Of a DNA stretch of 64,000 nucleotides, positions 12,001 to 52,223 are shown piece after piece; positions within the stretch are counted from its first letter, which is position 1, and each line of letters begins with the position of its first letter. Under the pieces are notes generated by a model. The model did no database searches. It was not told where the DNA came from and was given only the letters and a program-made list of their open reading frames with translations. The position numbers and the translations under genes were made by a program. The stretch covers positions 11,709 through 75,708 of the forward strand of contig JBPOHD010000005.1 of assembly GCA_052035955.1 (NCBI GenBank). Direction: 5' to 3'. Origin of the DNA: Pseudomonadota bacterium (GTDB taxonomy: Bacteria; Pseudomonadota; Gammaproteobacteria; Burkholderiales; Rhodocyclaceae).

Positions 12001-15000
12001 CTCGACGAGCTACAACCTGACGGTCTCCTCCACGGCACCGAATCCGGCCGACGGGGCCGGCAACGGCATGGCCGTCGCCAAGGTCCTGGCCGTCGGCGCC
12101 AAGCCGCTGGTCGTCACCGATGCCATCGGCTATGGCGCCGGTGCCTCCCAGGACACGGAGGACTGGTATTCCTTCGTCCTCGCCAGCAGCAGCCTCGCCC
12201 CCACCTACGGCGTCCAGCTCGGCCTGGCCGGCCTGTCCGACGATGCCGACGTCCAGCTCTGGCGGCGCACCGCCACCGGCAGCACCACCGCGGCCCTGGC
12301 CCTGGTCGGCGCCGACCTCGGGGCCGGCCTGGACGACATCGGCCTGGGCGGTGCCCTGGCCGCCGGCACCTACTACGTCCGCGTCTTCCAGCACGACACT
12401 GCCGACAAGACCGCCTACAACCTCAGCCTGCAGGCCGCCCTCGACCCGGTGGAAGAGGGCAACGACTCGCGGTTCGTCACCACCTCGAGCCTCTTCCTGG
12501 GCACCGGCACCGTCTCGGCCGCCACCCTCACCGCGACCAGCACCGCCACCGCCGTTTCCGCCGGGCGGAAGGAGTTCATCGGCGCCCTCGACCCCGACGA
12601 CTGGTTCAAGGTCGTCCTCGCCCCCGCCGGCAGCGCCTTCGGCATCAATGTTTCCATGAGCCTCACGGGCCTGGCCGTCGGCAGCGACGCCGACCTGGAA
12701 CTGGTCGACGCCACCGGCGCCGTGGTGGCCCGCTCCGCGGTGGCCGGCAACGGCGCCGAGAGCCTGGCCGTCAATGGCCTCACCGCCGGCAACGACTACT
12801 ACGTGCATGTGCTCTCGGTGGCCGGCGATTCGGCCTACAACGTCAAGCTGGACGCGAAGCTCGGCACGGCGCCGACCGATGCGGCCGGCAACAACGTCAG
12901 CCTCACCACCACGGCCGGCCCGCGGCTGGTGACCGTGGCCGCTACCCAGGCCACGCCCTACCTGGACTATGTCGATCCGGCGGCCGACGCCGACGACTGG
13001 TACCGGTTCACGCTGCCGCCGGCCGGCGCCTCGGCCGGCGCCCTGTCCAACTTCATCGCCACCCTGTCCGGCCTGACGGCGGATGCCGACCTGGAGCTCT
13101 GGAAGATGAGCGGCACCGGCACCGGGGCCACCTGGGCCGCCTACGCGGCCACCCCGGTCAGCGCCACCGAGTCGGCCTACGGCGAGGTCTTCCGCGCCGA
13201 GGGGCTGGCCTCCGGCACCTATGCCATCCACGTCACCGCCGCCGGCGCCACCAACTATGGCCTGACCCTGGTGGCCTCGGTGGACGACTTCGCCGCCGGC
13301 ACCGGCACGACGGGTTCCTTCGCCGCCTCCACGGCCACCGCCGGCCTCTACACGGCGGCCGGCAGCATCCAGGCCACCGGCGACGTGGACTGGTTCAAGG
13401 TGGACCTGACGGAAGGCGTCTGGACCCTGCGCCAGACCGGCACCGGCACCACCGGCAAGCTCGGCGATCCCTTGATCTACGGCATCTACGACGGGGCCGG
13501 CAGCATCATCGCCGGCACCGCCAACGACGACGCCGACGGATCCACCAAGGACGCCCAGGTGATGTTCTCGGCGACGGCGGGCACCTATTACGTGGCGGCC
13601 AGCGCCTTCGGCGGCGCCACCGGGGCCTTCGCCCTGAGCCTGTCCTCAAGCAACCAGGCGCCGGTGGTGGCCAACGGCCTCCTCGACCGCAGCCTGGGCG
13701 AGAACTTCGACGCTACCCTCCGCCTGCCCTGGAACAGCTTCGCCGACGCCAACGGCGATGCCCTGACCCTGAGCTGGGCCAACGAGACCGAGCTGACCGA
13801 GGCCGGCGTCGGCTGGCTGAGCTTCGACGCGACGGCGCGCCTCTTCCATGTCACGGGGCTGACCGCCGGGGCGCCCGACATCGTGGTCCGGGTCAAGGCC
13901 GACGATGGCCACGGCGGCTCCGTGACGGACGACTTCGTGATCCGCACCACGGCGACCGCCGACGACTTCGGCGACTACCCGGGAACCCACGTGATCGGCG
14001 AGCGGACCATGGCGCCGGGCAGCCTGGCCGCGGGCAACTTCGTGCGCGGCGCCATCGACGCGGCGGGCGACGCGGACTTCTTCCAGGTGGTGCTGGCCGC
14101 GGGCCAGGACTACGTGGCCGACCTCAAGGGCCTCGGCGCCGGCACCCTGGCCGACCCGCTGCTCCTCGGCCTCTACAACTCCGGCGGCACGGCGCTGACC
14201 AGCGGCTTCACCGTCGTCCAGGACTATGCCGGCAGCACCGACGCCCGCCTGTTCATCGACGCCACCGCCGGCGGCACCTTCCACATCGGCGTGGCCGGGG
14301 CGGCGGAGGCGGTCGGCAGCTATGTGCTCGCCCTGTCTTCGGGGACCACGGCGGTGCCGGGCGTCGATCCGGTCTACGTGAACGGCAGCATCGGAACCCC
14401 CTTCCTTTACGACGAGGGGCACCACCAGGATTACCTGGAGGCCCGCGAAGGCCAGTCCTTCGCCTTCACGCTGCCCAGCGGCATGTTCACCGGCGCGGCG
14501 CCCCTCAGCTATGCGGCTACCCTGGCCAGCGGCGCGGCGCTGCCCTCCTGGCTGAAGTTCGACGCCGCCACCCGCAGTTTCGGCGGCACCGCCACCGCCG
14601 GCGCGCCGGACCTCGCCGTGCGGGTCACCGCCCGCGACGAGCTGGGCCAGTTCGCCGCCGTCGATTTCGCGGTGCGCACGCCCGTCGCCACGGGCGAGCG
14701 GAAGGCCGCCTGGACCCTGCTGGTCTATGTCGCGGCCGACTCGGCCCAGGGCGCCCTGGCCCTCAAGGACCTCAACGAGCTGGAGGGCGTGCGCCTGCCC
14801 GACAACGTCAATGTGGTCGTCATGTGGGACGGCGCCGCCGCCAACGACACCAAGCGCGGCAAGCTGGCCTACGACGCCGACATGGGCACCTTCAAGAGCG
14901 TGCTGGCCCCCGTGTCGGCGACCGCCCTGGAGAAGAACATGGGCGATCCCGCCACCCTGACCGAGTTCCTGGACTGGGGCTCCGCCAACTACCGGGCCGA

Positions 15001-15754
15001 CAACTATGCCCTGGTGGTCTGGGACCGGGCCGGCGGCGGCTTCACCGGCATCGGCACCGACGCCACCAGCGGCCGCGACACCCTGTCGGCCGGCGAGCTG
15101 TCCCGGGCCATCGCCCAGTCCAGCCTGGGCGAGGTGGACCTGCTGGGCTTCGACACCAACCTGTCGGCGACCCTGGAGCAGGTGCGGGAGGTGTCCGGCG
15201 TGGCCGACTTCGTGGTGACCCCGGAGACGGTGGCCAAGGCCGACGGCTGGGACTACACGGGCTGGCTGCTCAAGCTCTCGGCCGACCCGGGCATGAGCGC
15301 CGCGGAACTGGGCGCCGCCGCCCAGGCCGCCTACTACGCCTACTACGGCCTGACCGACGGCACGGTGCTGCAAGGCGCCGACAGCAGCCAGGTCGGCGCC
15401 CTGGTCGGCGCCCTGCGCGACTTCCTGGTCGACTTCGTGGATGCGGAGGGTGCCGGCATCGACGACGACGTGCGCGACGCGCTGACCGCCAGCCGGCTGC
15501 TGGCCGACGGCGGGCAGGCCGACCTGCGCGCCTTCATGACGACCGTGGCGGGGGATGCCGAGGTGATCGCCGACGCGGCCGGCCTGGTGGCGGGCGCCAA
15601 CGCCGTGCTGGCCGCCCTCGACGCCGCCCTGGGCGCCACCGGCTCCCTGTCGGTGGCCGCCGTCGGGTCGGCCGACTACAACGCGGCCAACTACCGCTTC
15701 GTCGCCGAGTCGGGCTGGAACTCCTTCGTCACCAACCTGTACAGCATCACATAG
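1..15754 (+). CDS. Giant secreted adhesin-like protein, 5'-truncated at the window edge (>5,237 aa). Contains RTX-like Ca-binding repeats, ~8 copies of a ~60-aa Trp-rich repeat, ~20 Calx-beta domains, ~10 PPC (pre-peptidase C-terminal) domains, two cadherin/He_PIG-like domains, and a C-terminal clostripain (C11)-like domain with substituted catalytic residues.
   Basis: The ORF is open from nt 2 in the same frame; its first residues, GELAFSAGQTAAQVTV, already match the Calx-beta consensus. The motif F.AGQ..ATvTV...D...E.DE.F.V.L recurs about 20 times. The DFYKF...YYV.V motif recurs about 10 times. A GGxGxD run, LDGGGSDDQLDGGAGEDV, sits at nt ~1090-1300. The C-terminus reads WTLLVYVAADS...NVNVVVMWDG...ALVVWDRAGGG...LLGFDTNLS, which resembles the peptidase C11 fold. 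The stop codon is TAG at 15752-15754. Confidence 0.85.
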   Translation, partial: GELAFSAGQTAAQVTVLVRADHQFEGDEWFGLALSDPIHPGNPGIPENFYVGIDNDDDFFIGAASASVGGGIVRATPVAVGTGFGGAYGRANFAGDQDWMQMDLVQGQNYEFVAYNNGDGVGIVPGIRVFGANGSTQVTAGVSGSTIAGVLSYVDLTAPTSGTYYVALQGAAAGGYGFMSTADMTVDDYADGNGTHGVLVADFAGADRHGRFQTAGDADFLRLYLEVGQTYTFGADLVGTTGDLVLYDEFDSPLAFDVTGIGVATGVREYRVTATAEYSGVHYLAVTGATAGGRWVAFYDGQSPDPLSIPPTRYGVEAATPNIYEADTGEQVAWFNVFRTGSTDDAGSVGWRLAVEGADLTGNADSNTLTGTVADDYLDGGGSDDQLDGGAGEDVAVFFGYRDDYLVDFGTGGTLTVTDTYTEDGDEGTDTLTGIEWLSFYDGSYRIEQGGEFQVNTNTLDSEEMPTIARLADGGWVTAWEDDVEGNVDVFFQRYDADGAPVGGEVQANTYGSSDQMDATVAGLQTGGWVVLWESWNQDGDQDGVYGQIYDEFGSVVGSEFRVNQTTAGDQDEASVATLADGRFLVTWESSTSDSGGTSHGVQARLYAADGTALSDEFAASSGDDWNPHVADLAGGGFAIAWDYYNAGNDSDEVYLRVFDADGNALGAAFRANQYMADYQEQASIAGLADGSFVLAWETWEQDGSGEAVYARRFDAAGVALGNEFRLNQYAIGDQEDVAVAALAGGGFVAAWESYGQDGSLEGVYARRYDALGTALGAEFRVNVVDFDDQDTPTVTGLADGGFVVSWESWGQDGDYYGIYGRRYDADGLPVGAPRLVYDVLPELPVVDIADFAPGSVFSGVASFSAGQAATLVSIRVAGDTATEGDEALGLVLTGPGLASGHETATAVIRDDDALGVVTMDGVPGNVTEGGGFTVVLRRDGGLRQTSLVRWGVDAPALADVMPHNVPAAGDFVGGLLPGGTVTFAPGATTASFTIATANDVFSESPELFDLTFSASRAYFGFPGEFVGSAPGFGIDDNDPSLTAVPSYAISAPVSVLYEGGAIAREATPPATASATPVVFTVTRSVHTAQATTVNWKLDLAETRRGRGNHMTVADLAAGQALWGELGFTAGQTTATLTVRIAADYANELNEYFGVVLGEANGFEIARAGVSVLNDDDRFIGTTLAVVGSATLTPAALVIGTDRVGSRTRIDFAADQDWYAVQLNAGEQYEFYDVGRPGAIDPSLRLLDASGVQVATGANSFAAFDRIVYTAPVAGTYYLAAGANGGFTTAAVAYSNQYAIVSRTPGETDDFESGLATLDRLAASNHLPGIFGRIDGEGDEDAFRTWLDAGTTYTWIVAGIAPDTAADGLSFSLYDASSGTAVVAPVTMSAASAGAWMTPGAITFTPTTTGDYVLAVTGSDQALWHIGLDGVSVPGPLTSATPTVYGLQIPGTVIEEGDGNKFSALLGVHQVFVNVYRTGPTNEAGSVDWRIGTPSPGLDNDDFIGGAAGTAGTVFFGAGEAYQGLTLRIVGDDIDEDDESFSLELTNPTYGGSTLTAELHEADWRDDLRLADDDHTVFSVAALELRKYEGNSGATPYVFLVSRAGSSGAGASVNWVMSFGGTANEADFVGSAMPGGTIVFAEGETARLVTVTVQGDTTPEADEFMRFELYGVPPEALGTNIANATLRNDDPDTGANTLAGAAAGGSALAFAGGLVSNGINGMVGGADRNDFYKFTLGSAANVRLHLYGMAGGDANLRLYRGGTPIAYSGNAGSQDDFLRYGGAGLEAGTYFVQVLQGAGDTPYNLYLEASAASAAPSDVLITPANADRYEGNTGATPFVFTVLRGGNLATASTVGWAVAGTGGDPATSADFVGGTLPSGTLTFAAGATALLLTINVAGDTVDTSSDTFRVQLTAIANAFLPNGGAADAIIRNDDGLPADRGANTIAGIGAAPFTSADLGYVGLVPTAVAGEIVGTTDPNDYYRIRLAADADLIVDLTGMRADANLELLNATGGLLAASSNPHASDERIVYSGLAAGSYLIRVYSQGGADTPYDLRALAVPPKATVRVDATSAPASEGDSVSYDHVFSVSRQGDLSQEGHVEWRLALPSPGLDEFDFPVGFALSGTVSFSAGQTTPSTITIRTTGDVDVEADESFVVELFNPVELSLHPTARTAGGVIRNDDRIVAPPSVLIQAPGLSAFRDEGAAGTASTYVFTVLRNGEAAALDTGSVVSWTVAGLTPGLTAEDFDGATMPGGNVFFAAGQTSATLTVTVAGDALVEPDDPFQVRLTGTDWGVVVGGADSAFALIRNDDIPPAAAVVALRAVADSSARDEGDAGSTPFTFELRRSGGDPNAVATVEWRVDIPGIGGASAGDFAGGTLAAGTATLTAGADSVPITILVAGDASPEFDEGFIVRLTGASGAVIDPLGASVGGLIRNDDRVTRFGLRSDAPALAEGDAGDTTSFSFTVTRSGSSAGTDTVQWSALGLGAVAADFLNETLPAGTLTFTAGQETATISVLVTGDATVEGNEPFAVLLSNPSAGVEIDALANVAVARILNDDGLIPEVAIAAVTEVAAGPGVGDEAVPGAREGDSGNVPILFQLTRNGANLGSASVVRWAVAGALVSGADFAGGALPTGTFSFAAGQDSGFITIRVNGDSQFEADEQFQVNLTAVSNAVISAVAGQAAATILNDDAPPLVGIGLDGSTAAEQAEGNSTASAGLWKFVVARSGDTSGAGSVKWALGGSDTGLGADDFATTPLSGTVSFAAGQVTATVTVKARADFLQEEDEHFFLALSDAVGMVIDGGAGQAHAVIENDDEPPVLSILAESASLQEGSSASAGAATPFVFKVVRDGSTPASAVTVKWAVSSLASGLTAADFVGFAGLPSGTLTLAATATEAYITLKVATDFLPEADEPFQVSLSAAVNAGISASGGSAGGVIVNDDVPPEFSITPQELARSEGNSGSTPYVFTVTRDGNVGVAYTVNWRVVDLPFAPSVAGADFTGGALPSGTLSFGAAESVRTITLNVAGDALAELDETFVLAVVDNNGLVPSISTAVGRILNDDDDNTGIGTAAKAFAVPGAAAGSFDSPTDEDWFKLSLTAGTNYRFVAAALTADARLHLRDGAGTLLQEDDDSGGGNAALIEFTPVTTGTYYLVADAADGAEGLYALAGFRVDAGGVIAWPGTASAAPVLTLNAAPVAGLMDADGSQYKVSLSAGTIYQFVAHGAGTGAFSMAIYNGPSGGATLLAAETTTDAPDTTVTFQAATSGAYYLDALGEAGQVFSLEAKADNFAAVLPTLSLSGAQTALPEGNALGAATPFVFNVSRAGAAVNTVKVAYQVTVTTAAGQANAADFGGALPTDTITFAPGELLKTITINVAQDQAFEGDEVFGLKLLNASGALISATGGTVNNTIRNDDAAPTIAVSVDGEASRGEGDAGYTERVFVVTRSGAIGNTGSVKWSVAGATATGIGAANAADFVGGVLSSGTLGFAADQATATVTVLVAGDALVEGDEAFDLVLSAPVGGALDAAATRARALIANDDVVAPTITVTAVDGSKTEGNTAASAYVFSINRSGDLARASTVVWGVIPVIGGATLSDFAGGVLPAGTVTLAASQSAALVTISVAGDAFQEMDEAFRVKALSVTNGVVSTLGGTAVGNIRNDDTTGLAAEADTTRIDLAGNSRDLAYDVGNIGSAVRSFSDFVGDPDRNDYYRFVTTARGKLTMNLTGLTPDSDLQLLSGSGSFIAGSALAGVAPENIAVDNLEAGTYYVRVYQFLGNINYTLKLSSAANADNAGDSIATARNVSALTANEVSFSDYVGGTDQDFYKFTLAGETNFRLSLIGDSPNADVRVLDANGLIVASSTGSGSNENIAAVLGVGTYYAWVYPASGTINYTLRMSGATTAQSGNNAYTEAQDLGTLTTGAKTVTEAVGVADGEDFFKFTTTGLAKLTANLTGLTADADLVLLRGDGTTPIAFSTNAGATSESVVFDNLAAGSYYLQVTSRSGSTSYNLTVSSTAPNPADGAGNGMAVAKVLAVGAKPLVVTDAIGYGAGASQDTEDWYSFVLASSSLAPTYGVQLGLAGLSDDADVQLWRRTATGSTTAALALVGADLGAGLDDIGLGGALAAGTYYVRVFQHDTADKTAYNLSLQAALDPVEEGNDSRFVTTSSLFLGTGTVSAATLTATSTATAVSAGRKEFIGALDPDDWFKVVLAPAGSAFGINVSMSLTGLAVGSDADLELVDATGAVVARSAVAGNGAESLAVNGLTAGNDYYVHVLSVAGDSAYNVKLDAKLGTAPTDAAGNNVSLTTTAGPRLVTVAATQATPYLDYVDPAADADDWYRFTLPPAGASAGALSNFIATLSGLTADADLELWKMSGTGTGATWAAYAATPVSATESAYGEVFRAEGLASGTYAIHVTAAGATNYGLTLVASVDDFAAGTGTTGSFAASTATAGLYTAAGSIQATGDVDWFKVDLTEGVWTLRQTGTGTTGKLGDPLIYGIYDGAGSIIAGTANDDADGSTKDAQVMFSATAGTYYVAASAFGGATGAFALSLSSSNQAPVVANGLLDRSLGENFDATLRLPWNSFADANGDALTLSWANETELTEAGVGWLSFDATARLFHVTGLTAGAPDIVVRVKADDGHGGSVTDDFVIRTTATADDFGDYPGTHVIGERTMAPGSLAAGNFVRGAIDAAGDADFFQVVLAAGQDYVADLKGLGAGTLADPLLLGLYNSGGTALTSGFTVVQDYAGSTDARLFIDATAGGTFHIGVAGAAEAVGSYVLALSSGTTAVPGVDPVYVNGSIGTPFLYDEGHHQDYLEAREGQSFAFTLPSGMFTGAAPLSYAATLASGAALPSWLKFDAATRSFGGTATAGAPDLAVRVTARDELGQFAAVDFAVRTPVATGERKAAWTLLVYVAADSAQGALALKDLNELEGVRLPDNVNVVVMWDGAAANDTKRGKLAYDADMGTFKSVLAPVSATALEKNMGDPATLTEFLDWGSANYRADNYALVVWDRAGGGFTGIGTDATSGRDTLSAGELSRAIAQSSLGEVDLLGFDTNLSATLEQVREVSGVADFVVTPETVAKADGWDYTGWLLKLSADPGMSAAELGAAAQAAYYAYYGLTDGTVLQGADSSQVGALVGALRDFLVDFVDAEGAGIDDDVRDALTASRLLADGGQADLRAFMTTVAGDAEVIADAAGLVAGANAVLAALDAALGATGSLSVAAVGSADYNAANYRFVAESGWNSFVTNLYSIT

Positions 15755-15824: not shown

Positions 15825-16151
15825 ATGAACCAGAACGACCTCTTCGCCGACACCTTCAACGGCATTGCCGTCACCGGCAATCTCGTCCGCATCGACCTCG
15901 CCACCCTGGCCCCGACCCCGGGCGGCCAGCCCCAGGGGCAGCCCCAGTTCGAGACCCGCGGCCGCCTGGTGATGCCCATCGACGGCTTCCTGCGCGCCTT
16001 CGCCCTGGCCGAGGACGTCATGAAGAAGCTGATCGCCGCCGGCATCGTCACCCAGAAACCCGGCGCCCCCGCCGTCGCCGCCCCCGCCGCCGAAGCCGCT
16101 ACGGCCGCCCCGGCTGCCCCCGCCAAGCCTTCGTCGCCGAATTTCCAGTAA
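15825..16151 (+). CDS. Hypothetical 108-aa protein with an Ala/Pro-rich C-terminus and no signal peptide
   Basis: GGAGAA RBS lies 6 nt before the ATG. It sits between the adhesin terminator and the REP array and T1SS genes. I recognise no family. Confidence 0.5.
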   Translation: MNQNDLFADTFNGIAVTGNLVRIDLATLAPTPGGQPQGQPQFETRGRLVMPIDGFLRAFALAEDVMKKLIAAGIVTQKPGAPAVAAPAAEAATAAPAAPAKPSSPNFQ

Positions 16152-16198
16152 GAAGCGGCTGAACCGGACGGGTGACAGCGTTGTTCGTTGGATCGCGC

Positions 16199-16745
16199 GG
16201 CGCGGCCTCCACGCCTGCGGCCCGATCGCGGTGGCCCCGACCCCATCGCGGCGAGGACGCCGCTCCTACAGTGGCGAATCGGCGCTCCGGGGGGGGCAGC
16301 GAACAAACGAAAGCCGTCGCGCAGCGACCCTGTAGGAGCGCCGCCTGCGGCGCGATGGCGGTGGCCTCGACCCCATCGCGGCGAGGACGCCGCTCCTACA
16401 GGGGCGAATCGGCGCTCCGGGGCGGCAGCGAACGAACGACAAGCATCCCACGGCGGCCCTGTAGGAGCGCCGCCTGCGGCGCGATCGCGGTGGCCTCGAC
16501 CCCATCGCGGCGTCCCCGCCGCTCCTGCAGGGGCGAATCGGTGCTCCGGGGGAGCAGCGAACAAACGACAAGCATCCCACGGCGGCCCTGTAGGAGCGCC
16601 GCATGCGGCGCGATGGCGGTGGTTCCGGCCGCATCGCGGCGTCCCCGCCGCTCCTACAAAAACCGGATGGCACCGCCTTGTGGGAGCGCCGCCTGCGGCG
16701 CGATGGCGGTGGCCCCGACCCCATCGCGGCGGGGGGAGGGCGGGC
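16199..16745. repeat. Tandem array of ~4.5 copies of a 129-bp REP-like palindromic unit
   Basis: The unit is ctgtaggagcgccgcctgcggcgcgatggcggtggcctcgaccccatcgcggcgaggacgccgctcctacag (an 11-bp perfect stem, TGTAGGAGCG/CGCTCCTACA) plus gggcgaatcggcgctccgggg..cagcgaacgaacgacaagcatcccacggcggcc. It repeats at ~16199, 16330, 16459, 16588 and 16680. There are no unique spacers, so it is not CRISPR. Confidence 0.85.
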
Positions 16746-16748
16746 CCA

Positions 16749-18896
16749 ATGCCTGAAGCCTTCCCCCACACCGCCGTCCAGTGCCTGACCGCCATCGCCC
16801 AGCACCACGGGCTGCAGGTCAATCCCGAGCGGCTGGTCCACGAGTACGCCCTCGGTGCGGAGGAGCCGCCGCTGGCCCTCTTCCTGCGCATGGCCGCGGA
16901 CCTGGGCCTGAAGGCCAAGGCGGAGAAGCTGGGCTGGGAGGCCCTGGTCGCCCTGGAGGGGGTGTTCCCCCTGGTGGCCCGGCTGTCCAACGGCAACAGC
17001 GTCATCGTCATCGGTGCCCGCCGGGAACCGGGGGGCGAGGCGAAGATCGCCGTCCTCGATCCCCTGGCCGACAAGGCGGCGCCCATCATCCTGACCCGGG
17101 ACCAGTTCTGCGGCCGCTGGGACGGCGACCTGGTCTTCCTCAAGCGCAGCTATTCGCTGGCCGACCCCTCGCAGCCCTTCGGCCTGCGCTGGTTCATCCC
17201 GGAGATACTGAAGCAGAAGGTGGCCTTCCGCGACATCGCCGTCGGCGCCCTGGTGCTGCACGTCCTGGCGCTGGCCTCGCCCATCTTCTTCCAGCTGATC
17301 ATCGACAAGGTGCTGGTGCACCAGAGCAGTTCGACCCTCTGGGTGCTGGCGGTGGGCATCGTCATCGCCCTGGTCTTCGATTCCACCTTTGCCTTCCTGC
17401 GCCAGTTCCTGACCCTGGCGGCGACCAACAAGATCGACATGCGCCTGGCCCGGCGTACCTTCGCGCAACTGCTTTCCCTGCCCATCGACTACTTCGAGGC
17501 GGCCACCGCCGGCGTCATCGTCCGCCACATGCAGCAGGTGGAGAAGATCCGCCAGTTCCTCACCGGGCGGCTCTTCTTCACGGCCCTGGACGCCACGGCC
17601 CTGGTGGTCTTCCTGCCCCTGCTCTTCTTCTATTCGGCCAAGCTGGCCGGGGTGACGCTGCTGTTCACGCTGCTGATCGGCGGTGTCGTCGCGTCCCTGA
17701 TCCCGCCCTTCCAGCGCCGGCTGAAGGAACTCTACGAGGCCGAGGGGGAGCGGCAGGCCCTGCTCGTCGAGGCCATCCACGGCATGCGCACGGTGAAGGC
17801 CCTGGCCCTGGAGCCGATGCAGAAGAAGACCTGGGACCAGAAGGCGGCCCGGGCCATCACCATGCACTTCCGGGTCGGCCGCATCTCCATCACCGCCATG
17901 TCGGCCGTCCAGTTCCTGGAGAAGCTGATGTCGGTCGCCATCATCGTGCTGGGCGCCCAGGACGTCTTCGACCAGCAACTGACCGTCGGTGCCCTGATCG
18001 CCTTCCAGATGATCTCGGGGCGGGTGGTATCGCCCCTGGTGGCGATCGTCTCCCTGGTCCACGAGTACCAGGAGACGGCCCTCTCGGTGCAGATGCTGGG
18101 CCAGGTCATGAATCGTCCCTCGGAAGGGCGCGCGGGGGCCGGCGGCCTGCGGCCGCCGCTCAAGGGCGAGATCCGCTTCGAGGACGTGACCTTCCGTTAT
18201 CCCGGGGCCAGCGTCGCCGCCCTGGACCGGGCGAGCTTCGTCGTGCCCGCCGGCACGGTCATCGGCATCGTCGGCCGCAGCGGCTCGGGCAAGACGACCC
18301 TGACCAAGCTGGTCCAGGGCATGTATCCGGTGCAGGAAGGGATCATCCGCTTCGACGGCATCGATGCCCGCGAGATCGACCTTTCCCACCTGCGCCGGCA
18401 GATCGGCGTCGTGCTCCAGGAGAACTTCCTGTTCCGCGGCACGGTCAGGGAAAACATCTCCGCCGCCCGACCGGATGCCTCCTTCGAGGAGGTGGTCGCC
18501 GCCGCCCAGGCCGCCGGCGCCGACGAGTTCATCGAGCGCCTGCCCCAGGGCTACGACACCCTGCTGGAGGAGAACGGCTCCAACCTCTCCGGGGGCCAGA
18601 AGCAGCGCCTGTCCATCGCCCGCGCCCTGCTCTCCCAGCCGCGCATCCTGATCCTCGACGAGGCGGCCAGCGCGCTGGACCCGGAGAGCGAGGCCATCTT
18701 CATCCGCAACCTGTCGCGCATCGCCGTCGGCCGCACGGTGATCATGATCTCGCACCGCATGTCCACGCTGGTCAATGCCAACGCCATCGTCATCATGCGG
18801 CAGGGCCGCGTCGAGGACATCGGCCGGCACGCGGAACTCCTGGACCGTTGCGAGACCTACCGGAACCTATGGAACCAGCAGACCGCCCACCTGTGA
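16749..18896 (+). CDS. Type I secretion system ABC transporter (HlyB/LapB-like) with an N-terminal C39 peptidase-like domain
   Basis: The listed ORF 16188..18896 extends N-terminally through the REP array. The conserved protein begins at the in-frame ATG at 16749 (MPEAFPHTAVQCLTAIAQHHG). It has a TM domain, Walker A GRSGSGKTT, the signature LSGGQKQRLSIARAL, and Walker B ILILDEA. Confidence 0.85.
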   Translation: MPEAFPHTAVQCLTAIAQHHGLQVNPERLVHEYALGAEEPPLALFLRMAADLGLKAKAEKLGWEALVALEGVFPLVARLSNGNSVIVIGARREPGGEAKIAVLDPLADKAAPIILTRDQFCGRWDGDLVFLKRSYSLADPSQPFGLRWFIPEILKQKVAFRDIAVGALVLHVLALASPIFFQLIIDKVLVHQSSSTLWVLAVGIVIALVFDSTFAFLRQFLTLAATNKIDMRLARRTFAQLLSLPIDYFEAATAGVIVRHMQQVEKIRQFLTGRLFFTALDATALVVFLPLLFFYSAKLAGVTLLFTLLIGGVVASLIPPFQRRLKELYEAEGERQALLVEAIHGMRTVKALALEPMQKKTWDQKAARAITMHFRVGRISITAMSAVQFLEKLMSVAIIVLGAQDVFDQQLTVGALIAFQMISGRVVSPLVAIVSLVHEYQETALSVQMLGQVMNRPSEGRAGAGGLRPPLKGEIRFEDVTFRYPGASVAALDRASFVVPAGTVIGIVGRSGSGKTTLTKLVQGMYPVQEGIIRFDGIDAREIDLSHLRRQIGVVLQENFLFRGTVRENISAARPDASFEEVVAAAQAAGADEFIERLPQGYDTLLEENGSNLSGGQKQRLSIARALLSQPRILILDEAASALDPESEAIFIRNLSRIAVGRTVIMISHRMSTLVNANAIVIMRQGRVEDIGRHAELLDRCETYRNLWNQQTAHL

Positions 18897-20293
18897 CGCC
18901 GCCCGGAGCGCCGGGAGCGCCCGCGCCGGGGCCGTCCGCGGCGCCGGAGTCGGCCGCGCCGGTGTCGGAAACCGCCATCGAGTTCCTCCCGGACGCCGAC
19001 GAGATCGAGCGGCGGCCGCTGCCCCAGGCCGCCCGCATGACCCTCTACGTGCTGGCGGCGATGGTGCTGGTCTTCCTGGTCTGGGCGACCGTGTCGGAAG
19101 TGGACCGCATCGTCGTCGCCCGCGGCCGGCTGGTGACGCCCCTCTCCAACCTGGTCATCCAGCCCCTGGAGACCTCGCTGATCCAGGGCATCGACGTGCG
19201 CGTCGGCCAGGTGGTGAAGAAGGGCCAGCGCCTGGCCGCCCTCGACCCCACCTTCACCGGCGCCGACCTGGCCCAGTTGCAGCAGCGCTACCAGAGCCTC
19301 GATACCCAGGCCCGGCGGCTCGAACATGAACTGGGGCCGGGCGGGAAGCGTTCTGCGAAGGGCGGCTCCGACGTGGACAGCCGCACCCAGGCCCGCCTGC
19401 AGGAGGAACGGCAGGCCAACTACCGGGCCCAGCTCACCAGGCTCGACGAGACGGTGGAGCGGCTCAAGGCGGCGGCCGAAACCAATCGCCACGACCAGCG
19501 GGTCCTCGACGCCCGGGTCAGGTCCCTGGCCGAGATCGAGGCCATGCAGGAGAAGCTGCTGGCCCAGCAGTTCGGGTCCCGGGCCCGTCTGCTCGAGGCC
19601 CGGGAGAAGCGCCTGGAGGTGGAGCGCGACCTGCAGCAGGCGAAGAACCGGGAGGCGGAGATCCGCCGGGAAATGGCCGCCTCCGAGGCCGAGCGCTCGG
19701 CCTTCGTCAAGGGCTGGCGGCAGAAGGCCTATGAAGACCTCCTGTCCACCCAGCGCGACCGGGATGCCGCCGGCGAACAGCTGCAGAAGGCCGGCAAGCG
19801 CAGCGAGCTGGTGGTGCTGACGGCGCCCGTCGATGCCGTCGTCCTGGAGATCGCCAGGCGCTCCGTCGGCTCGGTGGTCAAGGAGGCGGAGCCCCTGTTC
19901 ACCCTCGTGCCCCTGGACGCCGAACTGGAAGCCGAGGTACAGGTGGATTCCGGCGACATCGGCTACCTCAAGCTCGGCGATCCGGCGCGCATCAAGCTCG
20001 ACGCCTTCCCCTTCCAGCAGCACGGCACCCTGCCGGCCCAGGTGCGCACCCTGTCCGAGGATGCCTTCCGCCGGGAGACCCCGGCCGCGGCGGCGGCGGG
20101 GCCGGGTGCCGACGCCTACTACCTGGCCCGGGTCGGCCTGCAGCAGGTCCGCCTGAAGGGCATGGAGGCCCGCCACCGCCTGCTGCCCGGCATGACCGTG
20201 ACGGCGGAGATCGTGGTCGGCAAGCGCAGCGTCATCTCCTACCTGCTGTGGCCCCTGACCAAGGCCATGGACGAGGCGATCCGGGAACCGTGA
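18869..20293 (+). CDS. Type I secretion periplasmic adaptor (HlyD family membrane fusion protein)
   Basis: In-frame ATG at 18869 overlaps the ABC gene stop by 28 nt. A ~56-aa cytoplasmic N-terminus (EFLPDADEIERRP) precedes the TM segment MTLYVLAAMVLVFLVWA. A long coiled-coil and a C-terminal beta domain follow. The listed 16781..20293 ORF is the same frame read back through the ABC gene. Confidence 0.8.
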   Translation: MEPADRPPVTPPGAPGAPAPGPSAAPESAAPVSETAIEFLPDADEIERRPLPQAARMTLYVLAAMVLVFLVWATVSEVDRIVVARGRLVTPLSNLVIQPLETSLIQGIDVRVGQVVKKGQRLAALDPTFTGADLAQLQQRYQSLDTQARRLEHELGPGGKRSAKGGSDVDSRTQARLQEERQANYRAQLTRLDETVERLKAAAETNRHDQRVLDARVRSLAEIEAMQEKLLAQQFGSRARLLEAREKRLEVERDLQQAKNREAEIRREMAASEAERSAFVKGWRQKAYEDLLSTQRDRDAAGEQLQKAGKRSELVVLTAPVDAVVLEIARRSVGSVVKEAEPLFTLVPLDAELEAEVQVDSGDIGYLKLGDPARIKLDAFPFQQHGTLPAQVRTLSEDAFRRETPAAAAAGPGADAYYLARVGLQQVRLKGMEARHRLLPGMTVTAEIVVGKRSVISYLLWPLTKAMDEAIREP

Positions 20294-20620: not shown

Positions 20621-23600
20621 TTGCAGTCGATCTTGGCGGTATTGGAGCGTCACGGCATGGTGAAGAAGAACGACGACGGCCGCGCCTCGCCGGCCCGGTC
20701 CGGCGGCCGGACCCCGACGCGGCCCATCGCCCAGGCCGGCGCCCGCGGCGGCCCCCGGCTGAAGCCGGCCGCCCGCGAGGTGGCGCCGCCGCAGGTGGGC
20801 TGGGTTGCGGCGCCCGGGCCCCAGGACCTGGCCGGCATCCTCGCCCGGGCCGTCGGCCTGCACCAGGCCGACCGGCGGGAGGAGGCCCAGGGCCTCTATC
20901 GCCAGGTGCTGGCCGTGGCCCCCGACCACGTGGACGCCCTGCACCTGATGGGGGTGGCCCATTGCCAGGCCCGGGAGTTCGACCAGGCCCTGCCCTTCTT
21001 CGAGCGGGCCCTGCGCCTGAAGCCCGATTTCGCCGATGCCCACAACAACCTGGGCAAGGCCTACAAGAGCATGAACCGGCTGGCCGATGCCGAGGCGGCC
21101 TTCCGGCGGGCCACGGAACTGGCGCCCGGGATGGCCGAGGCCTGGACCAACCTGGGCCGCCTGAAGCGGCGCCAGGGCGACATCGAGGGTTCCGTCGCCT
21201 GCTACCGCCAGGCCCTGACCGCCGGCTCCGGCGACGCCGAGGCCCACCATTTCCTCGGGGTCACCCTGAAGGATGCCGGGCGCATCGACGAGGCGATCGC
21301 CGAATACCGCCGGGCCCTGGAACTCAATCCCGAGTATGCCGAGGCCCTCAACAACCTGGCGGCCGCCCTGCGCGACAAGGGGGACCTCAAGGGCGCCATC
21401 GAGACCTACGAGCGGGCCGTCGCCGTCAAGCCGGACTTCGCGGCCGCCCTGACCAACCTGGGCAACGCCTACCAGGAGGCGGGCCGGATCGACGACGCCG
21501 TCGAGCACCACAAGCGCGCCATCGAGCTGCAGCCGAACCTGGTCGAGGCCCACAACAACCTGGGCGCCCTCTACATGGGCGAGGAGAAGGCCGAGGAGGC
21601 GGTGGCCTGCTTCGAGCGGGCCATCGAATGCCAGCCGGATTTCGCGCCGGCCTGGAGCAACCTGGGCAACATCCGGGTCGGCCAGGAGCAGATCGAGGAG
21701 GCCCGCCGCTGCTACGGCGAGGCCCTGCGAATCAAGCCGGATTTCGTCGAGGCCCTGACCAACCTGGGCAACCTGCTGCAGGATTTCGTGAGCCTGGAGG
21801 AGGGCCTGGCCAGCTACGAGAAGGCCCTGGCCATCAACCCGAACTTCGCCGGCGCCCGCTTCGGCCACTCGCTGGTCAAGCTGATGATGGGCGACCTGAA
21901 GGCCGGATTCGCCGAGTACGAGTCCCGCTGGGAGGGCTCCGACCAGGCCAGGAAGGTGAAGCCGCCGCGCTTCCCCTGCCCCCAGTGGAAGGGCGAGCCG
22001 GTGGGCCGCGATGCCCGCATCATCGTTTACTACGAGCAGGGGTTCGGCGACACGATCCAGTTCTGCCGCTACGCGCCGCTGCTGCTCGAGCGCTTCGGGC
22101 ACGTCAGCTTCGTGGTCCAGAACGAACTCTACCGCCTGGTGCAGCAGAGCATGGGCGACCGGGTGCGGGTGATCCCCGGCGAGCATGCGCAGCCGGCGGT
22201 GCGGGAGCGCTACGACTTCCACTGCCCGGCCATGAGCCTGCCGATGGCCTTCGGCACGGACCTGGCGACGGTACCGGCCCAGGTGCCCTACCTGTTCGCC
22301 GGCCGAGCCGCCGCGGCGGCCTGGCGCGAGCGCCTGGCCGGCGAGCGCCGGCCCCGCATCGGCCTGGTCTGGTACGGCTCCCGGGGATTCCGCGGCGACC
22401 GCTATCGGAGCATCGCCCTGGAAACCTTCCGCCCGCTGCTGGAGCGGGACGACGTGGCCTGGGTCAGCCTGCAGAAGGTGCGCCCCGACGGACCGGTGCC
22501 GGCCGAGCTCACCGACCACCTGATCGACCCCATGGGCGAGGTCAAGGATTTCGCCGATACGGCGGCGCTGATGGGGGAGCTGGACCTGGTGGTCTGCGTC
22601 GATACGGGCGTCGCCCACCTGGCCGGGGCGCTGGGCCGGCCGGTCTGGATGCTGAACCGCTTCAACAGCGAGTGGCGCTGGATGCGTGGCCGCACGGACA
22701 GCCCCTGGTATCCGACGATGCGCATGTTCAAGCAGGAAAAGCCGGCCGTCTGGGAACCCGTGCTGGCGGAAGTGGCGGCGGCCCTGCCCGAATGGCTGGC
22801 CTCCCGCGGGCCGCGCATCGTCAGGACTCGGCCGGATGCCAGGCCCTTCCAGCCGGCCGCCGTCGAGGTGGTGACGGCGGACCGCTACCAGCTGGCGGGG
22901 GCCGGCGGCGCCTCGCGCAGCGACCACGTGCAACTGGTCGCCGGCCCGGGTACGGTGGCCGCCGCGGCCCGCCGGCGGGCCGAGACCGAGGCGGCCCTGC
23001 AGGCGGGATTCGCCGCCCACCGGGCCGGCCGCCTGGAGGAGGCCCGGGCGGCCTACCGCAAGGTCCTGGACCTGGACCCCGAACATCCCGACGCCTGGCA
23101 CCTGACCGGCGTCATCCACGGTGCCCGCAAGGAGCACGAGCCCGCCATCGCGGCCATCCGGCGGGCCCTGGCGGCCAAGCCCGGCGACCCCGTCTACCTG
23201 GGCAACCTGGGCATCGCCCTGGCCGGCGCCGGCCGCCATGCCGAGGCCGCCGAGGCCTACCGGGAGGCCCTGGCGGGCGATCCCTCGGCCTCGGGCATCG
23301 CCTACAACCTGGGCAATGCGCTGACCGAGGAATACCGCTTCGAGGAGGCGGTGGGGGCCTACCGCAAGGCCATCGAGCTGCGGCCCGACTACGTGGCGGC
23401 CTGGCTCAACCTGGGCAACGCCCTGCGCGAGAAGGGTGCCTTCGACGACGCCCTGGCGGCCTACGGCCGGGTCCTCGAACTGTCCCCGGGCCATGCCGGC
23501 GGCCTGCTGAACCTGGGCAACCTGCGCCGCGAGCTGGGCGAGCCGGCCCTCGCGAGGGATCTGCTGCGCCAGGCGCTGGACACCGAGGCCACCAACTACC

Positions 23601-24652
23601 GGGCCTGGAACAACCTGGGCAGCGCGCTGCGCGAGCTCGGCGACCTGCCGGGCGCCCTGGACGCCTACCGGCGCTGCCTGGAAATCGCGCCGGACCATGC
23701 CGAGGGACGGCTGAACCTGGCCATGGCCCTGCTCGCCGCCGGCGACTTCGGCAACGGCTGGCGGGAGTACGAGTACCGCTGGGAAGGCGCCGCGGAGGCG
23801 AAGCGGCACCGTCGCCAGTTCCCCATGCCCCAGTGGCGCGGCGAACCCATCGCCGGCCGCTCCATCATCCTCCACGCCGAGCAGGGCCTCGGCGATGCCC
23901 TGCAGTTCGTCCGCTATGCCGAGCGGGTGGCCCGGCGAGGGGCGCGGGTGATCCTCGAATGCCATCCGCCCCTGAAGCGCCTGTTCGACCTGCTGCCCGG
24001 CATCGAGCGCGTCGTGGCCCAGGGCGAGGGGCTGCCGGTCACCGATTTCCACTGTCCCCTGATGAGCCTGCCCCTGGCCTTCGGCACGCGGCTGGAGACC
24101 ATCCCCGCCGCGACGCCCTACCTCTGGGCCGATCCGGTCCTGGTCCGGCGCTGGGCGGAACGCCTGGCCGGCGACCCGCGGCCCCGGGTGGGCCTGGTCT
24201 GGGCCGGCAATCCGCGGCGCAGCGACCCGGGGGCGCACCTGATCGACCGCCGGCGCAGCCTGGGCATCGCGGCGCTGGCGCCGGTGCTGGCCGTGCCGGG
24301 CCTGCGTTTCCTGAGCCTGCAGAAGGGGGAGGGGAGCGCCGGCCTGCCGGCCGTGCTGGAGGATCCGACGGCCGACCTGCACGATTTCGCCGACACGGCG
24401 GCCCTGGTCCGCAACCTGGACCTGGTGATCACCGTGGACACCTCCGTCGCCCACCTGGCCGGCGGCCTCGGCGTCCCGGTCTGGAACCTGTCCCGCTTCG
24501 ACGCCTGCTGGCGCTGGCTGATGGACAGGGAGGACAGCCCCTGGTATCCGACCATGCGCCTGTTCCGCCAGCCCGCCTACGGCGACTGGCCGTCGGTGAT
24601 CGCCCGGGCGGCGGCCGAGCTGGCCGACTGGCGCGACCGCTTCCTCCCGTGA
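20621..24652 (+). CDS. Internally duplicated TPR-repeat protein with two heptosyltransferase (GT9)-like C-terminal domains
   Basis: Two modules, each with ~8-10 TPRs followed by a domain carrying the motifs Q/EqGfGDtiQFcRY, hCP.MSLP.AFG, and CVDTGVAHLAGALGRPVW.L.RF...WRWM..R.DSPWYPTMR.F.Q. The true start may be the downstream ATG at ~20657 (MVKK). Confidence 0.75.
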   Translation: MQSILAVLERHGMVKKNDDGRASPARSGGRTPTRPIAQAGARGGPRLKPAAREVAPPQVGWVAAPGPQDLAGILARAVGLHQADRREEAQGLYRQVLAVAPDHVDALHLMGVAHCQAREFDQALPFFERALRLKPDFADAHNNLGKAYKSMNRLADAEAAFRRATELAPGMAEAWTNLGRLKRRQGDIEGSVACYRQALTAGSGDAEAHHFLGVTLKDAGRIDEAIAEYRRALELNPEYAEALNNLAAALRDKGDLKGAIETYERAVAVKPDFAAALTNLGNAYQEAGRIDDAVEHHKRAIELQPNLVEAHNNLGALYMGEEKAEEAVACFERAIECQPDFAPAWSNLGNIRVGQEQIEEARRCYGEALRIKPDFVEALTNLGNLLQDFVSLEEGLASYEKALAINPNFAGARFGHSLVKLMMGDLKAGFAEYESRWEGSDQARKVKPPRFPCPQWKGEPVGRDARIIVYYEQGFGDTIQFCRYAPLLLERFGHVSFVVQNELYRLVQQSMGDRVRVIPGEHAQPAVRERYDFHCPAMSLPMAFGTDLATVPAQVPYLFAGRAAAAAWRERLAGERRPRIGLVWYGSRGFRGDRYRSIALETFRPLLERDDVAWVSLQKVRPDGPVPAELTDHLIDPMGEVKDFADTAALMGELDLVVCVDTGVAHLAGALGRPVWMLNRFNSEWRWMRGRTDSPWYPTMRMFKQEKPAVWEPVLAEVAAALPEWLASRGPRIVRTRPDARPFQPAAVEVVTADRYQLAGAGGASRSDHVQLVAGPGTVAAAARRRAETEAALQAGFAAHRAGRLEEARAAYRKVLDLDPEHPDAWHLTGVIHGARKEHEPAIAAIRRALAAKPGDPVYLGNLGIALAGAGRHAEAAEAYREALAGDPSASGIAYNLGNALTEEYRFEEAVGAYRKAIELRPDYVAAWLNLGNALREKGAFDDALAAYGRVLELSPGHAGGLLNLGNLRRELGEPALARDLLRQALDTEATNYRAWNNLGSALRELGDLPGALDAYRRCLEIAPDHAEGRLNLAMALLAAGDFGNGWREYEYRWEGAAEAKRHRRQFPMPQWRGEPIAGRSIILHAEQGLGDALQFVRYAERVARRGARVILECHPPLKRLFDLLPGIERVVAQGEGLPVTDFHCPLMSLPLAFGTRLETIPAATPYLWADPVLVRRWAERLAGDPRPRVGLVWAGNPRRSDPGAHLIDRRRSLGIAALAPVLAVPGLRFLSLQKGEGSAGLPAVLEDPTADLHDFADTAALVRNLDLVITVDTSVAHLAGGLGVPVWNLSRFDACWRWLMDREDSPWYPTMRLFRQPAYGDWPSVIARAAAELADWRDRFLP

Positions 24653-24750: not shown

Positions 24751-26082
24751 GTGGGTATGCGTGACCGAATCCTGATCCTTTCCCTGGCTGCGCTGCCGGC
24801 GGCAGGCGACGTCCTGGCCGAAGTGGCCCGGGCCGACTTCGTCAACGGTCCCGTCGCGGTGGTCGGCGCCGACGGCGGTCGCCGCGTCCTGGTCAAGGGC
24901 GGCGAACTGAACAATGGCGAACTGGTGGCCACCGGCGACGGGCGGACCCAGCTGCGCTTCACCGACGGCGCCCTCGTGGCCCTGCAGCCGCGCACGGAAT
25001 TCAAGGTGGACGAGTACCGCTTCAGCGGCGCCAGCGACGGATCGGAGCGGGGCCTCTTCAGCCTGTTCAAGGGTGCCCTGCGGACGGTCACGGGCCTGAT
25101 CGGCAAGGGCAAGCGGGACAACTACCTGCTGCGTACCGAGGTCGCCACCATCGGCATCCGCGGCACCGAATACACGGCGGAGCTGGAGAACGGCTTGCGC
25201 GTCACCACCACGGCCGGCGAGATCGAGGTCTGCAACCAGGCCGGGTGCACGCCGGTCGGGGCCGGGCAGTCGGCCTACACGCCCAATTCGACCACCAAGC
25301 CCGCCTATGCGACGGACAAGGTCAGTGCCGGGCCGACCCCGCCGCCGCCCGATCCCAAGCTCTATCCGGAAAAGCCGGCCGTCGCCGTGCTGACCTCGGG
25401 AACGGGCTACGCGGTGGCATTCTCCGGCTACGACGTCTCGACGCCGCCGCCCATCGGCTTCGTCGGCCATTCCACCGACGCCACGGCCACCTACGACGAA
25501 CTGGGCGGCCTCTCCGGCTTTGCCTCCCCGAGCGGATCCCTCGGCGCCGTCAGCGCGACGCCGGCGGCCCATGCCGAACGCGGCACCGACGGCAGCGGCG
25601 TCATCGCCTGGGGACGCTGGGCCAGCGGCAGCTTCAACGGCGTGCCGGTCAGCCAGTTCCACTACGTGGCGGGCGTCCCGACCCCGGCCACCGCCCTGGG
25701 CGAGCTGATGGGCCTGAAGACCACCTACACCCTGATCGGCGCCACCTCCCCGACCGCCGCCAGCGGCGCGGTCGGCGGCCTGGTCACCGGTTCCCTCACC
25801 GTGCAGTTCGGCGCCACCACGACGACCGCCGCCCTGCTCAGCATTCCCATCGCCGGCGGCAGCTTCACCCTGTCCGGGTCCGGCATCACCGGCTTTCCCG
25901 CCTTCAGCGGTTCCGGCCTCAGCCTGACCTGCGGTCCCTGCCCGGCCGGCGCGACGCCGGGCACCGGCGCCGTGGGCGGCATGTTCTTCGGTCCCGCCGC
26001 CTCCCACGCGGGCCTCAACTATCTCTTCAACGGGGGGGCCACCCTGGGCGACGTGACGGGTGCGGCCGCCTTCCGGCGCTAG
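24751..26082 (+). CDS. FecR-domain secreted protein with a Gly/Ser/Thr/Ala-rich C-terminal region
   Basis: GGAGG RBS lies 7 nt before the GTG start. The N-terminus MRDRILILSLAALPAAGDVLA looks like a signal peptide without a lipobox Cys. The central region has the FecR-like motifs QLRFTDGALVALQPRTEFKV...LFSLFKGALRTVTG...TIGIRGTEYT. Confidence 0.7.
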   Translation: MGMRDRILILSLAALPAAGDVLAEVARADFVNGPVAVVGADGGRRVLVKGGELNNGELVATGDGRTQLRFTDGALVALQPRTEFKVDEYRFSGASDGSERGLFSLFKGALRTVTGLIGKGKRDNYLLRTEVATIGIRGTEYTAELENGLRVTTTAGEIEVCNQAGCTPVGAGQSAYTPNSTTKPAYATDKVSAGPTPPPPDPKLYPEKPAVAVLTSGTGYAVAFSGYDVSTPPPIGFVGHSTDATATYDELGGLSGFASPSGSLGAVSATPAAHAERGTDGSGVIAWGRWASGSFNGVPVSQFHYVAGVPTPATALGELMGLKTTYTLIGATSPTAASGAVGGLVTGSLTVQFGATTTTAALLSIPIAGGSFTLSGSGITGFPAFSGSGLSLTCGPCPAGATPGTGAVGGMFFGPAASHAGLNYLFNGGATLGDVTGAAAFRR

Positions 26083-26086
26083 CAGG

Positions 26087-52127: not shown

Positions 52128-52223
52128 GGGCTTTCCTTTCAGAAAAATAACAACCACTCTCTAGACATGGATTCTATTGGCATCGCGGTCAAGCGCCACC
52201 CCGGGACTCCAGTGCGGTCGGCG

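Follow-up and report, generated by a model that had tools for sequence, protein, structure and literature searches.

A clostripain-family pseudoprotease domain ends a giant cysteine-free protein and is linked to a conserved type I secretion gene cluster

The 64,000-nucleotide stretch of DNA analysed here, referred to as the window (assembly GCA_052035955.1, contig JBPOHD010000005.1, positions 11,709 to 75,708 of the forward strand), begins with a giant open reading frame (ORF) on the plus strand that is uninterrupted from window position 2 to a stop codon at 15754. The encoded protein, presumed to be the cargo of a type I secretion system (T1SS), consists of at least 5,250 amino acids (aa), its N-terminus being truncated by the start of the window. 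GC content at the third codon position (GC3) is 0.94, compared with approximately 0.70 overall. Pfam detects multiple Calx-beta, PPC and He_PIG domains, the internal repeats are mutually 30-39% identical, and there is not a single Cys in all 5,250 residues. At the extreme C-terminus lies a Peptidase_C11 domain, directly preceded by a He_PIG Ig-like domain at 14441-14668, plus strand (PF05345, E 1.2e-7 and 1.5e-6).

The original prediction for this locus, made from the DNA sequence alone, described a giant adhesin, more than 5,200 aa long, that contains Calx-beta and PPC domains and ends in a C11-like domain. The size, the domain content and the terminal position of the C11 domain are all borne out by the ORF and by Pfam; its status as an adhesin is not, although HlyB/HlyD-type genes follow. 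A tandem array of beta-sandwich extender domains, one criterion for an RTX adhesin, is present. RTX nonapeptide repeats, which belong to the minimum definition of this class (bioRxiv 10.1101/2025.09.30.679566), were not found in the giant protein, where a single GGxGxD occurs in 5,250 aa, at residue 389, and the Pfam HemolysinCabind score of 20.7 bits lies under the cutoff of 23 and distant from the C-terminus. Because it is without the nonapeptide repeats, the giant protein is not a canonical RTX adhesin, and the label adhesin is unproven.

The C11 domain occupies the final 350 aa of the giant ORF (14702-15751, plus strand) and is recognised as such by Pfam, an AlphaFold2 (AF2) model and Foldseek. 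It consists of an alpha/beta core of domain residues 1-200, which contains the former active site (14702-15301), and a C-terminal subdomain predicted to be helical by AF2 (15302-15751), with no tail past the fold. In-frame translation of 14501-15754 reads WTLLVYVAADS...NVNVVVMWDG...NYALVVWDRAGGGFTG...VDLLGFDTNLSATLE and ends in ...NLYSIT before the stop codon, exactly the text from which a C11 layout had been proposed. The domain scores 115.4 bits on Pfam Peptidase_C11 (PF03415; E 5.8e-33), for which the gathering score is 25.8. Its match to the clostripain equivalog TIGR02806 is weak (29.9 bits, cutoff 550), and the domain is therefore a distant C11 family member and not clostripain itself. 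Searching PDB sequences with phmmer returned matches to thetapain (6n9j), clostripain (9cip) and the 6mzo zymogen of Parabacteroides distasonis. The AF2 model, built on a 56-sequence alignment, has a mean pLDDT of 92.3 and a pTM of 0.92, and in it the clan CD alpha/beta core and the C-terminal domain fold are both present. Its sole significant Foldseek matches in the PDB are clostripain, thetapain, the 6mzo zymogen, iotapain and PmC11 (3uws), with E down to 1e-16 and TM-scores of 0.72-0.76 to 9cip, 6n9j and 6mzo. C11 homology was thus found by profile, among the PDB sequences and in comparison of the model with clostripain and PmC11, and profile matches and predicted fold together show that these 350 residues are truly homologous to the clostripain-family (C11, clan CD) peptidases.

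Where C11 enzymes carry their catalytic His, the window domain has Arg109-Ala110 (CGG GCx, 15026-15031), and where they carry their catalytic Cys it has Asn153 (AAC), the last residue of Asp151-Thr152-Asn153 at 15152-15160, both on the plus strand. In the phmmer alignments, VVWDRAGGGF of the window lies against VFWSHGDGWL (6n9j), IMANHGGGA (clostripain, 9cip) and VLWSHGTGWL (6mzo), and GFDTNLSAT lies against FDACYMQ, FDACLMG and FDACYMS. A profile alignment of 125 relatives, 114 of which have both His and Cys, places the window Asn in the Cys column and treats the Arg as a single inserted residue adjacent to the His column, the window reading WD-R-A-GGG against WD-H-GGG in relatives. The ortholog L049, from Rhodocyclaceae, reads WDHNGGG and GFDTNAS; therefore, Arg occupies the His column and the residue that follows it is the inserted one. 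In terms of PmC11, His133 is replaced by Arg109 plus the inserted Ala110, and Cys179 by Asn153. The proposed Arg-Ala at the catalytic His is accordingly confirmed as a substitution with one added residue. For the proposed Thr-Asn at the catalytic Cys, only the Asn is informative; the Thr is not diagnostic because Thr or Ser precedes the nucleophile in active relatives as well (GFDTC, GFDSC). Asp151 is invariant in every alignment and corresponds to PmC11 Asp177, two residues before the nucleophile position, which is the primary S1 determinant and is conserved throughout C11 (PMC4850288).

Neither His nor Cys occurs in the 350-aa domain, and the closest His elsewhere in the giant protein is approximately 90 residues upstream of the domain. 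Migration of the catalytic residues to other nearby positions, which the original prediction had named as an outcome that would speak against it, was rejected on these counts. Given that there is no Cys in the whole protein and no His in the domain, thiol protease activity is predicted from sequence to be excluded. Active C11 peptidases, including clostripain, PmC11, thetapain and the 6mzo zymogen, belong to the same PF03415 family and share with the window domain the predicted fold, including the C-terminal helical subdomain, as well as the S1 Asp and the DGWDY motif. They differ from it in the catalytic His and Cys, in the one residue inserted at the His turn, and in their setting, being stand-alone enzymes of approximately 40-55 kDa, whereas the window domain terminates a repeat protein that exceeds 5,000 aa and has no Cys.

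Nei-Gojobori estimates of the ratio of nonsynonymous to synonymous substitution rates (dN/dS) were obtained against the closest ortholog, L048. For the core, dN/dS is 0.068 with 97% aa identity, compared with 0.287 and 88.5% across 2,844 upstream codons, and 0.50 and 84% for the C-terminal helical subdomain. The same order is seen in four ortholog comparisons, in which the aa identities of core and upstream sequence are 97/88, 81/74, 68/55 and 67/57%; conservation of the helical subdomain is lower in all four. The dead active-site region is the most constrained part that was measured, and the strong purifying selection acting on the dead core shows that some function is retained there.

An exhaustive HMMER search over 1.84 billion cluster representatives returned 112 proteins at E<1e-30, most of which are large and multidomain, at 1,000-3,700 aa. 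We aligned 180 C11 domains from the 150 closest cluster representatives and 8 earlier hits, and both His and Cys are found in 161 of the 180. The C11 domain ends no more than 15 aa from the C-terminus in 56, and several PPC domains followed by He_PIG and a C-terminal C11 form a recurrent layout, usually with an intact dyad. A dead caspase-fold domain at the C-terminus of such an adhesin had been considered unusual. The position itself is recurrent; what stands as special is the dead variant and its gene neighbourhood. Other dyad losses among the 180 domains exchange Cys for Ser (six), Gly (two) or Asp (one), and His for Asn or Gln, in proteins P0123, P0146, P0155, P0158, P0176, P0211, P0125, P0238 and P0263. 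Some large relatives carry two or three tandem C11 domains. From these sequences, catalytic loss in the C11 subfamily of large proteins appears to be recurrent and independent.

The closest active relatives (P0003, P0124, P0127, P0130 and L001 from Azospirillum oleiclasticum) are 37-45% identical in the domain, are likewise built of PPC repeats followed by He_PIG and a terminal C11 domain, and have no signal peptide at their start. The He_PIG-then-C11 order also occurs in P0001, P0003, P0124, P0127 and L001. In P0124 (2,216 aa), P0127 (1,854 aa) and L001 the order of PPC, He_PIG and C-terminal C11 is that of the window protein and Cys residues are likewise few; they differ from it in being smaller and in keeping both His and Cys, the Cys often being the sole one. 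Many active relatives have exactly one Cys in 1,000-3,300 residues. By sequence comparison, the dead domain can be shown to descend from the active C-terminal C11 domain of Cys-poor PPC/He_PIG exoproteins without a signal peptide.

Asn at the nucleophile position is shared by eight sequences, namely the window, L048, L018, P0010, P0001/P0122, P0002 (equal to L051/L052), P0004 and L049, referred to below as the dead clade. Identity to the window is 91% for L048 and 71% for L018, and the giant protein of L018 is 72% identical to that of the window over 2,447 aa. Arg is found at the His position in six of the seven clade members that cover the site, with L049 retaining His, and the Asn is always preceded by Ser or Thr. 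Near the cleft, the clade has an invariant Arg in the SGR loop that lies between the two halves, the site of autoprocessing in C11 enzymes; it also invariably has PET for AS(E/Q) and, ahead of DGWDY, Lys/Arg-Ala for Pro-Gly. All available stretches of the giant proteins of the clade are Cys-free. The cargo of L049 (GCA_009668885.1, SBEJ01000002.1, a Rhodocyclaceae metagenome-assembled genome, MAG) is called at 11,315 aa and that of L051 (JGI Ga0496013_0000044) at 8,358 aa, which is very large for single bacterial proteins; in both, the last approximately 3,300 aa are available, are Cys-free and end in the dead C11 domain. A pseudogene or an assembly artefact was considered and rejected, given an unbroken 15.7-kb frame and the recurrence of the substitutions in independent contigs. 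The dead dyad was not found in a single-protein scan of species-representative genome contigs, where relatives reach at most 41% identity, and the dead clade is therefore absent from those genomes at the sensitivity of the scan.

Immediately after the giant gene, all on the plus strand, lies a conserved set of genes. The next gene, at 15825-16151, encodes a 108-aa protein without a Pfam family and is found after every pseudo-C11 gene, being directly next in all seven independent pseudo-C11 loci besides the window. It is followed by an HlyB-type T1SS ATP-binding cassette (ABC) transporter with an N-terminal C39-like domain (16749-18896; Pfam C39, ABC_membrane and ABC_tran), which matches E. coli HlyB (PDB 7sgr) over its full length at E 1.3e-145 and whose start codon is confirmed by 85% identity to the ABC protein of L047. 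An HlyD-family periplasmic adaptor (18893-20293; Pfam HlyD_3) has a GTG start that overlaps the ABC stop codon and scores 313.9 bits on TIGR01843, against a cutoff of 208.65. Then follow a TPR protein of approximately 1,340 aa with two segments resembling GT9, the heptosyltransferase family (20621-24652, syntenic in L049-L052), a FecR-domain protein with a signal-peptide-like N-terminus (24751-26082; Pfam FecR 34.3 bits, syntenic in L049-L052), and an outer-membrane barrel with TPR and SlipAM domains, of the Slam or type 11 secretion system (T11SS) family (26060-27412). The Pfam scores of the barrel are E 2e-10 for TPR_19 and 24.6 bits, against a cutoff of 22, for SlipAM, and both families are also on record for the syntenic barrel genes of the L049 and L051 loci. 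Wherever a pseudo-C11 locus reaches beyond the 108-aa gene, the ABC gene follows, and after it come HlyD, TPR, FecR and Slam in unchanged order, including at the loci of the 8,358-aa (L051) and 11,315-aa (L049) giant genes. In contrast, the cluster in this arrangement was found at none of the 44 loci carrying other C11 relatives, and examined active loci such as L001 are without it. These comparisons of sequence and gene order show that one clade, predicted to have lost catalysis, is confined to giant genes with a fixed set of genes behind them.

Identity between the window and the L049 MAG cluster is 84-88% for the ABC transporter, 74-76% for HlyD, 72-73% for the TPR protein, a value that also holds across the syntenic loci L049-L052, and 58-60% for the C11 domain. 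The metabolic genes flanking the cluster in the window have approximately 78% DNA identity to Azospirillum replicons. Conservation is thus higher in the export genes than in the cargo domain, and this between a window with Azospirillum-like flanks and a betaproteobacterial MAG, which suggests that the cluster moves horizontally.

Several further features of these genes were observed. The 108-aa gene lies at 2011-2340 in L046, at 1923-2252 in L047, and from position 10001 in L048-L052. Its product is modelled by AF2 as a beta3-alpha core with a disordered Ala/Pro tail ending in an invariant KPSSPNF, and it has no Pfam family and no significant PDB fold match. Distant homologues (40-53% identity) lie beside a TpsA/TpsB exoprotein and OmpH in Sporomusa (L053) and beside RTX genes (L054), and from this distribution the 108-aa family seems to be tied to large exoproteins. 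Between the 108-aa and ABC genes, at 16160-16734, are four to five tandem 129-bp units, each with a palindrome of 27-34 nucleotides, that occur nowhere else in the window and not in the relatives, where the gap is only approximately 70-110 bp. They resemble an insertion of the repetitive extragenic palindromic (REP) type, possibly one that affects the coupling of cargo and transporter expression. A match of these intergenic repeats to Rfam mir-6790, at 34 bits against a gathering score of 78, was judged a chance match to a GC-rich hairpin. The TPR protein is composed of two repeats of a TPR block and a short GT9-like segment, and may glycosylate the Ser/Thr-rich giant protein. In the C39-like domain of the ABC transporter (16749-17150, plus strand), a Thr (PHTAVQC) lies at the presumed catalytic Cys of C39 by the register of the HlyB alignment, a position at which HlyB has Tyr. 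If this placement is correct, the C39-like domain would be a second dead protease fold in the cluster. Elsewhere in the window, a 304-aa protein with a PEP-CTERM sorting motif is encoded at 51249-52160 on the minus strand, far from the cluster and with no evident link to it.

The original prediction had suggested that the domain could act in binding, retention or regulated processing. On balance, we lean toward a role in which the pseudoprotease is kept as a recognition or binding module on a type I secretion cargo. The HlyB-type ABC and HlyD genes lie directly downstream on the same strand and the putative cargo is Cys-free. As cargo of the adjacent type I system, the giant protein would be exported C-terminus first, and the pseudo-C11 domain would be the first part to reach the outside and to fold. 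The former substrate cleft, with its S1 Asp, new invariant basic residues and invariant Asn, could then bind a peptide-like ligand or a partner from the cluster without cutting it. RTX adhesins have their binding domains at the distal end. The pseudo-C11 domain might likewise be a ligand-binding head there, or else a docking handle for a cluster partner, and it would substitute for the beta-roll and the distal ligand-binding region of RTX adhesins.

Several points weigh against this reading. Any classical T1SS signal would have to lie in the C-terminal helical subdomain, the fastest-evolving part of the protein, and the ABC transporter scores 642.8 bits on TIGR01846, below the cutoff of 725.55. 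There is no TolC gene in the 64-kb window, and the N-terminus, where a signal peptide or retention module would lie, is outside it. The active relatives that were examined are not beside T1SS genes, such that T1SS export of the wider family is not established. Finally, RTX proteins are the normal cargo of HlyB-type transporters that have a C39-like domain, whereas the window cargo is without nonapeptides.

The main rival, which we consider doubtful but a serious contender, is that the pseudo-C11 domain is a purely structural export module that carries the T1SS signal and acts as a first-folding cap or ratchet in place of the beta-roll, with no specific ligand. It would account for a domain placed at the exact C-terminus with no extra tail, next to T1SS genes and in a protein without RTX repeats, where the canonical RTX adhesin has its beta-roll and signal (bioRxiv 10.1101/2025.09.30.679566). 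It would also fit the last approximately 25 aa (ADYNAANYRFVAESGWNSFVTNLYS), which are near-invariant within the dead clade; however, F333 and W339 of this motif are kept across C11 generally, including in relatives outside the gene cluster, which makes the motif part of the fold. This rival is weakened further because constraint sits in the cleft-bearing core (dN/dS 0.07) and not in the C-terminal 150 aa (0.50), and a role in folding only leaves the invariant Asn, Arg and S1 Asp unexplained. An unlikely alternative is a regulatory or processing handle, in which the dead cleft or the SGR loop docks, or is cut by, a trans-acting protease or the 108-aa protein, acting like a chaperone or inhibitor, and so controls release or maturation of the megaprotein. 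The constant presence of the 108-aa gene after the pseudo-C11 gene, the distant 108-aa homologues beside other large exoproteins, and the clade-specific Arg in the loop at which C11 enzymes autoprocess, the residue in PmC11 being Lys147 (PMC4850288), all speak for it; against these, there is no protease gene in the cluster and the fold of the 108-aa protein matches nothing informative.

Two other explanations fare worse. The invariance of the Asn in eight of eight sequences, always after Ser or Thr, and the one lineage that still has its His would be compatible with a different chemistry, either self-cleavage through a succinimide at the Asn or a Ser/Thr nucleophile at GFD[S/T]N. We regard this as very unlikely, since there is no similarity to known Asn-lyase motifs, His has been lost in six of the seven sequences that cover the site, and the Ser/Thr that precedes the nucleophile is also a feature of active enzymes. 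To our knowledge, such chemistry has no precedent in clan CD. We give almost no weight to a decaying, functionless remnant at the end of a rapidly expanding repeat protein. The several independent dyad losses in C11 domains of large proteins would be in keeping with decay, but the core is the slowest-evolving segment measured, and its low dN/dS therefore rules decay out. The reading frame is also intact, the AF2 model is confident, and the same substitutions are found in the window with its Azospirillum-like flanks and in the Rhodocyclaceae MAG.

A broader proposal, speculative and in our estimation rather unlikely, is that Cys-free megaproteins of 5,000-11,000 aa are exported and anchored by a composite pathway not yet described, of which the dead C11 domain would mark the cargo, its cleft docking the first-emerging end of the cargo to a pathway partner. 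The parts of such a pathway would be HlyB/HlyD, the 108-aa factor, the TPR/GT9-like putative glycosyltransferase, the FecR-like periplasmic protein and the Slam/T11SS-family barrel, and the handle would be formed by the S1 Asp, the invariant Asn and the new Arg residues of the former cleft. Docking of this kind would stand in functionally for the RTX beta-roll and for the N-terminal retention logic that Lap-type adhesins use.

Several known systems resemble parts of this arrangement. Pseudo-orthocaspases are clan CD proteins of family C14 with Tyr/Ser in place of His/Cys (PMC6426788). Like the window domain, they have the clan CD fold with both dyad residues replaced yet conserved, implying a non-catalytic role; unlike it, they are C14 and not C11, have other replacements, and are not placed at the end of a secreted megaprotein. 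RTX adhesins such as LapA, MpIBP and FrhA are likewise megaproteins of Ca-binding beta-sandwich domains beside T1SS ABC and adaptor genes, with a functional head at the distal C-terminus, which in FrhA and MpIBP is a peptide-binding domain (PMC10523503). The window protein differs from them in having no beta-roll or nonapeptides and no recognisable separate T1SS signal tail, and its FecR-like, Slam-like and TPR/GT9-like accessory genes are not those of Lap systems. The HlyB-type C39-like domain is also a protease fold without its Cys, kept as a binding module in type I secretion, but it is of another clan, sits in the transporter rather than the cargo, and has another partner. In the cysteine protease domain (C80) of MARTX toxins, a clan CD protease fold is again part of a giant protein exported by a T1SS. 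That domain is active, internal and autoprocessing, whereas the domain of the window is terminal and dead.

Clan CD pseudoproteases are already known, and what would be new here is a dead C11 clade with strict linkage to a gene cluster. Literature searches on clostripain/C11 with RTX, type I secretion, adhesin and pseudoenzyme found no published description of a dead C11 domain or of its pairing with a conserved seven-gene T1SS and Slam-family cluster, and we found none of a FecR-domain protein and Slam-family barrel paired after type I genes. A survey of T11SS cargo (PMC12282271) makes no mention of FecR, HlyD, T1SS, Calx, clostripain or such a neighbourhood, and a C11 domain in a very large surface protein has been noted in passing, in a 390-kDa protein of Acetivibrio cellulolyticus (PMC3723904). 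The active sister proteins, with a single Cys in thousands of residues, provide a natural comparison set for catalytic resurrection of the dead domain. Should the dead cleft prove to be a site of binding or docking, it would offer a way into two problems: the recognition, export and surface retention of very large non-RTX proteins, and the repurposing of protease folds as binding modules.

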